Shown one piece after another: positions 370 through 4,112 of a DNA stretch of 4,112 bases (the first letter of the stretch is position 1; the number at the start of each line of letters is the position of its first letter). A program made the translations under genes and the position numbers. The stretch lies in the NCBI RefSeq assembly GCF_036507355.1, contig NZ_AP027884.1, one strand, 5' to 3'. The notes below the pieces were generated by a model. That model saw nothing but the letters and a program-made list of their open reading frames with translations, had not been told where the DNA came from and did no database searches. Origin of the DNA: Escherichia coli (GTDB lineage: Bacteria; Pseudomonadota; Gammaproteobacteria; Enterobacterales; Enterobacteriaceae).

Positions 370-1038
370 CTAATAAAAAGACCTGTTTAACTTATTTTTA
401 TATTCAAGTATAGATCTTTTTATTATATGATACGAGGAGGAAAAGATAACGGCTATAATTAACGTTAGAGCCATAATTAAAGCTGGTTTATACTTTTTAT
501 TCACTATTTCATTATTTATTGAAATGAAGTTTTTTTCTCCGGTGGTGTTTATTTTTGTTAATAATGCAACTTTTGCATATGTTTCAGTGCCATTTATATA
601 GTTGCTGTCCTGGTTGTTAACTATGCTTTTATAAGTTTTATAATCTTGGATGTACCAGTCATCAATAGCTTTATGGATAGCGTTTACTTCAGCGGTAATC
701 AGTGGTTTGTAACGGTCATCACCAGCCCATGACAGGATTATTTTTTTTCCTTTTTCATCTATATTTGATGTTATAGACTTGCTTTTATTGTTTATAATTG
801 ATTGTATGATATTCGCTTTACAATAAAAGTCAGACCCACAGTTAATAATCATACTTGGTGAATTAGCGATCATATTTAATTCGTACTTTATATTTATTTT
901 GTTTTTGTTTATCAGTAAGAAAATAGATGACAAAATCAATGAGAAAACAACAAACAAAATAATACTCACGATTTTTTTCTTAAGAAAGAGAAATAACTCG
1001 ATGAAATCAATATCAGGTGAATTGTTTTCCATTTTCAT
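370..1038 (-). CDS. Short Wzz/Cld-like polysaccharide co-polymerase family protein (222 aa, bitopic membrane protein: N-terminal TM, about 140-aa periplasmic domain, C-terminal TM)
   Basis: A 669-nt ORF in roughly 25% GC DNA, where stop codons are frequent, is very unlikely by chance. The N-terminus MKMENNSPDIDFIELFLFLKKKIVSIILFVV parallels the Wzz motif M..ENN...IDLI(D/E)LL.QLW.GK..II followed by a TM helix. The C-terminus KPALIMALTLIIAVIF plus short basic tail parallels the Wzz C-terminal P-rich/TM segment. Hydrophobic stretches at about residues 23-43 and 186-206. Confidence 0.55.
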   Translation of the reverse strand: MKMENNSPDIDFIELFLFLKKKIVSIILFVVFSLILSSIFLLINKNKINIKYELNMIANSPSMIINCGSDFYCKANIIQSIINNKSKSITSNIDEKGKKIILSWAGDDRYKPLITAEVNAIHKAIDDWYIQDYKTYKSIVNNQDSNYINGTETYAKVALLTKINTTGEKNFISINNEIVNKKYKPALIMALTLIIAVIFSSSYHIIKRSILEYKNKLNRSFY

Positions 1039-2164: not shown

Positions 2165-2314
2165 ATGCCATCTGAATATGATGAACAACTGGATTCGACT
2201 GATACGCAGCTTCCCGGCGAATATGACCTTTTTGATTTAATGGCGCAGGTTACTGAAGAGAACCTGCACGCCCCGGTGGATTTTGGGCCGCCTGTCGGCC
2301 GTGAAGTGTTATAG
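2165..2314 (+). CDS. Hypothetical small acidic protein, 49 aa (MPSEYDEQLDSTDTQLPGEYDLFDLMAQVTEENLHAPVDFGPPVGREVL)
   Basis: Hand-translated ORF immediately downstream of the bom-like segment; no clear Shine-Dalgarno; no recognised family. Could be a chance ORF. Confidence 0.25.
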   Translation: MPSEYDEQLDSTDTQLPGEYDLFDLMAQVTEENLHAPVDFGPPVGREVL

Positions 2315-2413: not shown

Positions 2414-2580
2414 TAAATAAACGGGGACTTCAGTTTTTACCTTTTAATTCATGCAATTGCGATGAAAATCGCGGTTGCGTATGGTGTATGACCATTTAAG
2501 GGATAATGTAACCTGACTTTTAAAGAATGAATCTATCTTTGGTAGCGCATGAGATCGATAAAAAGCGTTCCACATCAGGC

Positions 2581-2600
2581 GGTTCATGGATACATGAACC
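2581..2600. promoter_or_regulatory. Perfect palindrome GGTTCATG-gata-CATGAACC
   Basis: 8-bp perfect inverted arms with 4-bp spacer, immediately upstream of the phased direct-repeat array. Confidence 0.45.
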
Positions 2601-2603
2601 GGA

Positions 2604-2684
2604 AAGGACAAAAATAAGACAATTGTAGGACATTTTTTGCGTTTTACTCTTATTTTTGGACTATTATGAGACAAATGTAAGACA
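2604..2684 (+). repeat. Iteron/operator-like array: two sets of three 7-bp direct repeats (consensus T-R-R-GACA) at exact 11-bp spacing, separated by a 30-bp gap
   Basis: AAGGACA 2604, TAAGACA 2615, TAGGACA 2626; TTGGACT 2656, TGAGACA 2667, TAAGACA 2678. Spacing of about one helical turn; the array ends 14 bp before the ATG at 2698. Confidence 0.6.
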
Positions 2685-2697
2685 TTATGGGCGGTAT

Positions 2698-3066: not shown

Positions 3067-3272
3067 TTTTGAATTCTAAGTAGTGAAATAGTGGATCCTC
3101 TACTCGAAATTGTCGGATACCTGCAATTACCTACCGTGCCTTACGGCTTGGTCAATGCCTCACGGCCACGCAATAAATTGCGTCCCCGTTCACCGTTTTC
3201 GGATAAGAAGAACATCGGAAACAGGACTTACCCCGGCTGAATGGCGTGAATTTCCGCGCTATGCACTTGCGC

Positions 3273-3284
3273 GCATACTCATGC
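3273..3284. promoter_or_regulatory. Candidate ArgR-box-like palindrome (GCAT-actc-ATGC) in the Xer accessory region
   Basis: Palindrome centred about 109 bp upstream of the XerC arm, where cer-type sites carry an ArgR site; sequence only loosely resembles the ARG box consensus. Confidence 0.3.
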
Positions 3285-3386
3285 ATGCCGTAAAAACAGA
3301 GCCTGCGCGTTTCTGGCGGGTTTTCGGGTGGTTTGTTGCCTGTTTTACCGGTTTCCCGTCAGAAACGCCCTCAGCGCCTCTCAGGC

Positions 3387-3414
3387 GGTGCACGCAACGG
3401 ATGTTATGGTAAAT
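3387..3414 (+). other. Xer site-specific recombination site (cer/psi-like multimer resolution site): XerC arm GGTGCACGCAA, 6-bp central CGGATG, XerD arm TTATGGTAAAT
   Basis: XerD arm is identical to the cer XerD arm; XerC arm differs from psi (GGTGCGCGCAA) at one position; 11+6+11 layout. About 200 bp of potential accessory sequence lies upstream. Confidence 0.6.
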
Positions 3415-3503: not shown

Positions 3504-3526
3504 GGTGATGACTCCAACTTACTGAT
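3504..3526. repeat. IS1 terminal inverted repeat (IRR)
   Basis: GGTGATGACTCCAACTTACTGAT, the canonical IS1 terminus. Confidence 0.85.
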
Positions 3527-3914
3527 AGTGTTTTATGTTCAGATAATGCCCGATGACTTTGTCATGCAGCTCCACCGATTTTGAAAACGACAGTGACTTC
3601 CGTCCCAGCCTTGCCAGATGTTGCCTCAGATTCAGGTTATGCCGCTCAATGCGCTGCGTATATCGCTTGCTGATAACGTGCAGTTCTCCCTTCAGGCGTG
3701 ATTCATAAAGCGGCCAGCCATCCGTCATCCATACCACGACCTCAAAGTCCGACAGCAGGCTCAGAAGACGCTCCAGTGTGGCCAGAGTGCGTTCACCGAA
3801 TACGTGCGCCACAACCGTCCTCCGAATCCTGTCATACGCGTAAAACAACCAGCGCTGGCGTGATTTAGCGCCGACGTAACCCCGCTGTTCGTCCATTTCA
3901 GCGCAGACAATCAC
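3519..3914 (-). CDS. insB: IS1 InsB (shown from first in-frame ATG; in IS1 the transposase is the InsAB' fusion made by -1 frameshift at the A6C motif, here complement of about 3959..3967)
   Basis: ORF-track protein [28 protein letters not shown]...HYLNIKHYQ matches IS1 InsB; the TTAAAAAAC slippery motif is present on the minus strand just upstream. Confidence 0.9.
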
Positions 3915-3940
3915 ATCACCGCCCGGTTGTATGCGCTAGG

Positions 3941-4112
3941 TTACCGACTGCGGCCTGAGTTTTTTAAGTGACGTAAAACCGTGTTGAGGCCAACGCCCAT
4001 AATGCGTGCACTGGCGCGACATCCGACGCCATTCATGGCCATATCAATGATTTTCTGGTGCGTACCGGGCTGAGAGGCGGTGTAAGTGAACTGTAGTTGC
4101 CATGTTTTACGG
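3941..4112 (-). CDS. insA: IS1 InsA, 3' portion (stop codon = complement of 3941..3943)
   Basis: The frame continues from the window start; 34 codons + 1 junction codon + 57 codons gives 91 aa plus stop, the InsA length. C-terminal sequence ...[16 protein letters not shown] is followed by TAA. Confidence 0.85.

Follow-up and report, generated by a model that had tools for sequence, protein, structure and literature searches.

What does a regularly phased array of short repeats do in front of a small, unannotated gene on a small plasmid? The question is raised by a 4,112-nucleotide sequence from Escherichia coli (contig NZ_AP027884.1, NCBI RefSeq assembly GCF_036507355.1), called the window hereafter. 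The window is a complete small plasmid with a 98.9% match to a 4112-bp E. coli record. Its replicon type is ColE1, with RNAI at 1324-1425. Between 2581 and 2684, a palindrome and two triplets of direct repeats precede an open reading frame (ORF) of 122 amino acids (aa). An earlier interpretation made from the letters alone, the sequence-only reading, had proposed a phased, promoter-proximal binding array for a small DNA-binding protein encoded downstream. This proposal was supported, and both partners can be named. The protein belongs to the StbA family and the array is stbS-like. We consider it very probable, from the comparisons with related loci, that the repeats are a stbS-type binding array of the downstream protein, and that the module comes from the transfer-origin (oriT) region of a MOBF plasmid and now resides on a ColE1 plasmid.

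The downstream protein

The 122-aa protein is a member of the StbA family and an unannotated relative of R388 StbA. It is composed of a helix-turn-helix (HTH) domain at residues ~8-65, a disordered linker at 70-90 and a conserved C-terminal part, ...DF..EE....S....KKGF. The NCBIfam model NF041290 (StbA_2, 'plasmid stabilization protein StbA') matched residues 8-65 with an E value of 1.7e-9 and 38 bits, which is below the equivalog cut-off of 100 bits. R388 StbA itself reaches 19 bits with this model, less than the window protein. The precomputed Pfam family of the protein cluster is PF28167 (StbA-like); the Pfam-A scan of the protein, done with a copy that lacked PF28167, gave noise only. No ParR family matched the sequence in the NCBIfam and Pfam-A scans. 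The sole sequence match in the PDB was 7pc1, the DNA-binding domain of R388 StbA (E 0.012).

The same entry was found by structure. The AlphaFold model, built on a 14-sequence alignment, has a predicted local distance difference test score of ~90 for residues 10-64 and forms four helices within residues 11-64. The linker is disordered and the C-terminal helix is of low confidence. The best PDB match of the model in Foldseek was 7pc1 (prob 0.94, root-mean-square deviation 2.3 Å, 30% identity). Arg9 and Arg16 of the window protein are aligned with Arg17 and Arg25 of R388 StbA, and Leu56, Tyr57, Arg58 and Arg60 (LYRxR motif) are invariant. The two R388 arginines were assigned to the putative DNA attachment site (Quebre et al., 10.1101/2022.04.29.490116).

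The gene is labelled 'hypothetical protein' in every plasmid record examined, and a 2019 review of pJHCMW1, a well-studied model plasmid, described it as 'of unknown function' (PMC6764390). A search of the literature on StbA-like proteins, and on StbA in small or ColE1 plasmids, gave nothing relevant, and no paper found ties StbA to these plasmids. The second 122-aa ORF of pRHEcCUB-2 proved unrelated. All homologues align from the ATG at 2698. In the Salmonella-type lineage described below, the frame that would open at the TTG at 2656 is closed (TTG GAC TAA). Therefore, the ATG at 2698 is confirmed as the start, as the sequence-only reading had preferred.

The repeat array

Six RGAC[A/T] cores lie on the plus strand in two sets of three, with an exact spacing of 11 bp within each set (Table 1). 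The sequence-only reading had given the same count, spacing and grouping with the consensus TRRGACA. Only four of the six copies fit that consensus strictly, because copy 1 is AAGGACA and copy 4 is TTGGACT. Therefore, the common core is RGAC[A/T]. The gap of 30 bp stated there was counted from the start of copy 3 to the start of copy 4; the 7-mers themselves are separated by 23 bp. The two sets are one 41-nt unit duplicated at a distance of 52 bp (2606-2646 and 2658-2698, 73% identical). Two phased RGACW triplets were observed, against none in 5000 dinucleotide shuffles of the window and none in 5000 shuffles of the local AT-rich region, with the motif for this test picked post hoc, after the data had been seen. 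The same word and phasing recurred independently in distant loci. No further phased RGACW run was found in the window.

The gap had also been proposed to hold a core promoter. This was not borne out. In a simple promoter scan, the plus strand showed no sigma-70 promoter of consensus grade in or around the array and the gap. By hand, two weak candidates were noticed in the window, AGGACA-18-TATTTT and TTGCGT-19-TATTAT, and no promoter is claimed from them. In the Salmonella lineage, AAGACA-18-TAAAAT is a better candidate than those of the window. The sigma-70/terminator scan gave no terminator.

Related loci and the change of the repeat word

An exhaustive search gave homologues that are 42-58% identical over the N-terminal domain. 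On their contigs, stbA is flanked on one side by genes for a TrwA-like protein, a T4 coupling protein and a TrwC relaxase, and on the other side it is followed by genes of ~240 and ~120 aa. These are stbB and stbC, present downstream in the homologous loci L010, L012, L015 and L018. Raoultella pMQB_Silv108.1 (NZ_CP104454.1), a conjugative plasmid of the MOBF and MPF_T types, has the genes downstream of stbA named stbB and stbC. Its StbA (147 aa) has 39% identity with the window protein along the full length (E 1e-30) and 61% in the N-terminal domain, and the KKGF tail is shared. The 115-aa upstream gene encodes a homologue of TrwA from R388.

In L015, L009, L010 and L012, the region between trwA and stbA can be aligned with 2320-2700 of the window, and its elements stand in the same order. 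GTAATAC sites (L015 and L009) come first, followed by the hairpin and nic core, the AAAAAGCGTTC box, the palindrome and the RRGAC[A/T] sets. The sets contain 2+3+4 units in L015 and L009, 2(3)+3+4 in L010 and 3+4+3+3 in L012. With 8-12 kb scanned per locus, phased RRGAC[A/T] runs were found only upstream of stbA and on the stbA strand. In more distant loci, the 11-bp period is retained with other words, which are GGATAC in L014 (5+1+2), [A/G]ACTAC in L020 (3+4+3), ACGACA in L018 and ATGATGCA in R388. The repeat word thus changes together with the StbA homologue. This is expected if StbA of each plasmid binds its own repeats, and it argues against a host factor. The shared upstream layout and the variation of the word with the protein point to the array as a stbS-type StbA-binding site.

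The palindrome and the neighbouring box

The sequence-only reading had noted a perfect palindrome ahead of the repeats. It is present, with arms of 9 bp instead of the 8 bp given there. As single-stranded DNA it folds with -10.2 kcal/mol (z = -5.7). Among nine loci, the inner six pairs (TTCATG/CATGAA) are invariant, the three outer pairs covary and the loop is free. The covariation of the outer pairs comprises 12 double-change cells with 96% paired; none of 500 shuffles was as high and slid controls were 27-44% paired. In the small-plasmid lineages, the arms are invariant and the loop is GATA, GCTA or TAGC. L018 and R388 have wholly different palindromes at the same position. The presence of different palindromes at one position, together with the covariation, indicates that symmetry or hairpin potential is what is selected. 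The palindrome could be either a hairpin on the transferred strand or a site for a plasmid-specific dimer. The covarying palindrome may be a structural signal on the entering transferred strand, common to the whole oriT family. An intrinsic terminator was rejected, since a T-run after the palindrome is found only in L010 and not in the window or most relatives. As a side observation, the AAAAAGCGTTC box is retained even in L018, whose palindrome and repeat word both differ.

The transfer origin

What the sequence-only reading had missed is that the whole block belongs to a MOBF-type oriT, as its leading end next to nic. The nic core (2475-2493) is on the same strand as the array, ~115 bp upstream of it. 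In the aligned loci, the nic stretch is a short hairpin followed by TTGCGTATGGTGTAT(A/G)(G/A)CC...TTAAGGGATA. When GCGATgaaaATCGC GGTTGCGTATGGTGT/AT of the window is set against GCGCACCgaaaGGTGCGTATTGTCT/AT of R388 (the slash marks the nick), the IR2 hairpin and the conserved G17, T18 and T23 are all found. R388 as a whole shows the layout GCGCACCgaaaGGTGCGTATTGTCT/ATAGCC...TTTAAGGATACC, then the palindrome CCCAATGCGCtatGCGCATTGGG and then the ATGATGCA repeats. The window nic, GTTGCGTATGGTGT/ATGACC...TTAAGGGATA, agrees with the published TrwC substrate and with the MOBF nic positions. Of these, G17, T18 and T23 are conserved and G21 occurs only in pKM101 and F (PMC4176350). The nick is predicted between 2487 and 2488 on the plus strand, and stbS-stbA would therefore be the first DNA entering the recipient. 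No relaxase or TrwA ORF is present in the window. Therefore, transfer would need a helper supplying the relaxase in trans.

The sequence-only reading had assigned the GTAATAC palindromes to a separate DNA-protein interaction. This agrees with the related loci, where the GTAATAC/GTATTAC word adjoins the trwA-like gene in L015 and L009. Its place is taken by GCTATACGC in L012, GTTAAAC in L010 and GGTAATACC in L020. The GTAATAC palindromes are probably bound by an accessory protein of the relaxosome, similar to TrwA, which would be supplied in trans because the window does not encode one.

Conservation and distribution

A second small-plasmid lineage, represented by Salmonella p805-4, metagenomic contigs and Mangrovibacter, is ~80% identical in DNA and 72% in protein. 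All six cores are kept in the Salmonella-type lineage, while the R positions and spacers vary. Between the two lineages, none of 24 positions in the GAC[A/T] cores is changed, against 16 of 50 other positions (Fisher p = 8e-4). The R positions are changed in three of six cases, each time from purine to purine, and the inter-set spacer of the Salmonella-type lineage is shorter by exactly 11 bp.

PLSDB contains the stbS-stbA block in ~89 records, which come from Escherichia, Salmonella, Klebsiella and Shigella and are mostly of 2.5-14 kb; 61 of 5426 complete E. coli genomes also have it. The main cluster of the StbA-like protein has 493 member sequences. In a comparison of 735 plasmid records with 2440-2506 of the window, the match stops at ~2497-2506 in more than 600 small plasmids of Enterobacteriaceae and gives way to divergent sequence, and only ~83 continue into the palindrome and the repeats. 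The divergence begins 10-19 nt beyond the predicted nick, which suggests exchange of the module by recombination at nic. Candidate helpers similar to L015 occur in 45 of the 5426 E. coli genomes. In a coarse check, no strain name was common to these 45 and to the 61 with the small plasmid. This null result gives no support for dependence on such a helper and is weak evidence against it.

Decay of the module is exemplified by the E. coli plasmid AP027812.1. Deletion or scrambling at 1600-1700 of this record has affected set 2 and the 5' end of its stbA-like gene, with the nic region, the palindrome and set 1 still intact.

Proposed mechanism

By analogy with R388, the StbA-like subunits would bind consecutive 11-bp units (stbDR equivalents) cooperatively, with about one dimer per two units. 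Because the period of 11 bp is one helical turn, the subunits would be aligned on one face of the DNA. The two sets, with the subunits bound, would make up a nucleoprotein complex that covers the stbA promoter region and represses stbA. The module, composed of nic, the AAAAAGCGTTC box, the palindrome, the repeats and stbA, would be the nic-proximal leading end of an IncN/IncW-like MOBF conjugative plasmid, transplanted without stbB, stbC and trwABC into a small ColE1-type plasmid that has no relaxase. In this setting, an autoregulated operator is the most likely role of the complex, rather than an efficient partition centromere. In the presence of a MOBF helper, it may also modulate how the oriT next to it is used. 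We infer these properties (binding, cooperativity, autorepression and effects on transfer or positioning) from the known behaviour of R388 StbA.

Several observations weigh against this assignment. The identity to R388 StbA is low (28%, pairwise E 0.002). The scan gave no good promoter for the proposed operator, as described above, and the TTGAC(A) -35 box that distant relatives have in the equivalent (last) gap is degenerate in the window. The ratio of non-synonymous to synonymous substitution rates (dN/dS) of the stbA-like gene between the two lineages is 0.48 at a dS of 0.32, which is just moderately below 1. Truncated variants of the gene exist in some plasmids. In a widespread lineage of 12.6-13.9 kb plasmids, IS2 is inserted at ~2679, inside set 2; in NZ_CP042590.1 the IS2 copy occupies 10862-12121, immediately upstream of an intact stbA-like gene. 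In this lineage, the native array or promoter is dispensable, or the gene is driven by IS2. Since the interrupted array persists, an intact array is not essential for maintenance. Finally, the window has 3+3 units in comparison with the 5+5 units of R388 that are needed for segregation, and R388 arrays of two or three units act only as operators (10.1101/2022.04.29.490116).

Alternative explanations

The last point bears directly on a reading in which the array is a working partition centromere, with StbA-stbS tethering or positioning the copies on the nucleoid and improving inheritance as in R388. Homology to the only known partition system that is independent of a nucleoside triphosphatase (NTPase), the two-set arrangement and the retained C-terminal tail all speak for it, as the C-terminal domain of R388 StbA is needed for positioning and segregation. 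An objection comes from pJHCMW1, whose gene is intact and whose array differs from that of the window at one R position only. Reyes-Lamothe et al. (PMC3902917) showed that this plasmid stays outside the nucleoid in E. coli, has a polar location, diffuses and is partitioned at random. Such behaviour resembles the phenotype of R388 without stbA, with the limit that no stbA mutant was compared in the pJHCMW1 imaging. In addition, the host plasmid is a high-copy ColE1-type replicon (RNAI), there are only 3+3 units and IS2-disrupted arrays persist in many isolates. The centromere role suggested by the sequence-only reading is therefore doubtful, and we regard it as unlikely that the array is an effective centromere in this high-copy plasmid. 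Similarly unlikely, in our judgement, is a decaying relic of a captured leading region, without current function, whose repeats persist because the capture was recent. It would account for the IS2 insertions, the 5' deletions, the truncated ORFs and the dN/dS value, and also for the more than 600 small plasmids that have the nic-proximal sequence without the module. However, the full ORF and all six cores are kept in two lineages separated by a dS of ~0.32, with substitutions only at non-core positions and an indel of exactly 11 bp. The 493 members of the main protein cluster and the presence of the module in four genera (Escherichia, Klebsiella, Salmonella and Shigella) also disagree with a relic.

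Three further readings have far lower probability. The complementary strand of the repeats reads TGTCY, and host winged-helix response regulators of the PhoB/OmpR type likewise bind direct repeats spaced by 11 bp. The array bears a superficial likeness to the pho box, in which CTGTCAT recurs every 11 bp. However, the pho box has A after TGTC where the array has T or C, no array is found elsewhere than upstream of stbA, and plasmids that share a host range differ in the repeat word according to their StbA homologue, as expected for a plasmid-encoded binder. Boxes for a host regulator are thus highly improbable. We give still less credit to a centromere of the type II ParR/parC kind, the analogy drawn by the sequence-only reading. 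The array does resemble R1 parC in having 11-bp iterons in two sets around a promoter, upstream of a gene for a small DNA-binding protein, and Quebre et al. likewise drew a parallel to the ParR centromeres of pB171 and pSK41. The analogy fails at the protein, which is an all-helical StbA-type HTH and not a ribbon-helix-helix, with no match to ParR families and no ParM-like gene in the window. The lowest probability falls to replication iterons bound by a Rep initiator. An AT-rich region with direct repeats would suit them, but the replicon is of the ColE1 type without a Rep gene, and the 11-bp units are homologous to stbS arrays that lie beside oriT in plasmids whose replicons are elsewhere. 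A stbS-type array bound by the downstream StbA-family protein remains the preferred explanation.

Other features of the plasmid

The features of the window are collected in Table 1. According to the ORF list, the 4112-bp plasmid has no ORF for stbB, stbC, trwABC, a ParM-like protein or Rep. The region 3' of 3066 consists of non-coding sequence and a Xer-like site, with no ORF of the stbB (ParA-like ATPase) or stbC type. This site, GGTGCACGCAACGGATGTTATGGTAAAT at ~3387-3414, resembles the core of a cer/mwr-type Xer recombination site. The stbS-stbA block therefore sits between nic and a putative Xer site. Similarity to the Salmonella plasmid stays at 90-100% over 3161-3400 and drops sharply past ~3400, as expected for exchange at a Xer site.

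On the minus strand, ~2048-2125 (...GGAGTGTATATGGGCTCAATATGC...) appears closely similar to the bom (oriT) region of ColE1/pBR322. If so, the plasmid may bear two different orphan oriTs, as pSe-Kan does (PMC9282650). The 49-aa ORF has weak similarity to the C-terminal end of the MazE antitoxin (E 0.007), and a toxin partner is absent. The AT-rich 222-aa ORF is probably foreign cargo; WzzB, which it weakly matches, is the O-antigen chain-length determinant. At the place of the IS1-like fragment, IS1 is annotated in relatives.

Table 1. Coordinates of the features in the 4,112-nucleotide window.
Feature	Position	Strand	Remarks
AT-rich 222-aa ORF, hydrophobic ends	370-1038	-	weak match to WzzB N-terminus, E 0.0014
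49-aa ORF	2165-2314	+	conserved and annotated in relatives
GTAATAC palindromes	2339-2356, 2393-2413 (also GTAATTAC 2378-2385)	.	GTAATAC/GTATTAC word recurs
MOBF-type oriT core: IR2-like hairpin GCGATgaaaATCGC (2460-2473), then GGTTGCGTATGGTGT/ATGACCATTTAAGGGATA	2460..2506	+	from alignment to L015, L009, L010, L012 and R388; slash, predicted nick
AAAAAGCGTTC box	2560..2570	+	10 bp upstream of palindrome; conserved in L015, L009, L010, L018; variants in L012, L014, L020
Palindrome CGGTTCATG-gata-CATGAACCG	2580..2601	.	perfect 9-bp arms 2580-2588 and 2593-2601; 4-nt spacer
stbS-like set 1, three 11-bp units GAAAGGACAAA, AATAAGACAAT, TGTAGGACATT	2602..2634	+	RGACA cores at 2606, 2617, 2628
Inter-set spacer TTTTGCGTTTTACTCTTAT	2635..2653	+	weak promoter candidates only
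stbS-like set 2, three 11-bp units TTTTGGACTAT, TATGAGACAAA, TGTAAGACATT	2654..2686	+	cores at 2658, 2669, 2680
stbA-like gene, 122 aa	2698..3066	+	N-terminal StbA-type HTH, linker, C-terminal helix/tail
IS1-like transposase fragment	3519-4112, up to window end	-	131-aa ORF 3519-3914

Significance

The identification of StbA/stbS accounts for a block of non-coding sequence that is conserved in ~80-90 small plasmids of Enterobacteriaceae, and several of these plasmids bear resistance genes. It predicts that the conjugative plasmids mobilising them are MOBF helpers with RRGACA-type stbS. The pairs of protein and repeat word form a useful set for the recognition code of StbA. The small plasmids also offer a natural test of whether StbA/stbS alone is a centromere or mainly a transfer regulator. 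More tentatively, and as something that we think rather unlikely, the orphan StbA-stbS could be a hitch-hiker's device, coupling the small plasmid to the StbA/StbB transfer switch of a RRGACA-type MOBF helper. The premise is that the window StbA shares its DNA specificity with StbA of such helpers. If true, the small plasmid's own oriT could stay masked until StbB of the helper arrives. Alternatively, ~20 copies of stbS and an excess of StbA could shift the helper's balance between vertical stability and conjugation towards mobilisation of the small plasmid.

Comparison with known systems

The closest characterised system is StbA/stbS of R388. There, stbS consists of 9+2 bp repeats in two sets of five, to which StbA binds cooperatively, repressing its own expression (10.1101/2022.04.29.490116). 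R388 StbA represses PstbA and four other promoters, and stability needs stbS and no plasmid NTPase; it inhibits conjugation unless StbB is present (10.1101/2022.04.29.490116; PMC3098194). The absence of a partition NTPase gene, which the sequence-only reading had set beside a centromere-like layout, is consistent with this system. The window shares with R388 a homologous DNA-binding domain, 11-bp direct repeats in two sets just upstream of stbA, the position of the array on the leading side of a MOBF nic and a palindrome between nic and the repeats. In contrast, the word is RRGAC[A/T] in the window and ATGATGCA/TTGCATCAT in R388, the sets are 3+3 and not 5+5, and the palindrome is another one. 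The window also differs in having a high-copy ColE1 replicon, a protein with only 28% identity and no stbB, stbC or trwABC in cis.

The loci of pMQB_Silv108.1 and of ~34-kb E. coli stbABC plasmids such as NZ_CP023823.1 (MOBF/MPF_T) are also close to the window. They share the repeat word, its phase and strand, the TTCATG-N4-CATGAA palindrome, the AAAAAGCGTTC box, the nic core TTGCGTATGGTGTAT and the GTAATAC sites. Unlike the window, they have 2+3+4 units, a clear TTGACT -35 box in the last gap, stbB and stbC downstream, trwA, the T4 coupling protein and the relaxase upstream, and a longer linker (147-aa StbA). The IncN StbA of R46/pKM101 belongs to NF041290 (StbA_2), the best-scoring curated family for the window protein, and the window nic has G21 as pKM101 does. 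However, the score lies below the equivalog cut-off and the identity is ~39% over the N-terminal domain. The oriT of R46 has thirteen 11-bp direct repeats.

The type II ParR/parC systems (R1, pB171 and pSK41) and type III TubR/tubC are unlike the window in the fold and family of the protein and in their dependence on the ParM or TubZ NTPase, for which there is no counterpart here. As small ColE-like plasmids with a ColE-type bom, a second conjugative-type oriT and no mob genes, pSe-Kan (F-type oriT) and pBuzz are similar to the window (PMC9282650). The captured oriT differs, being IncN/IncW-like MOBF and accompanied by the leading-region regulator StbA and its array. With the exception of stbB and stbC, all testable features of a StbA/stbS system are present in the window. 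The module is thus of a known kind and reveals no new kind of system. Within this kind, RRGAC[A/T] is a new class of StbA DNA specificity, and its orphan setting on a high-copy plasmid without relaxase is unusual.

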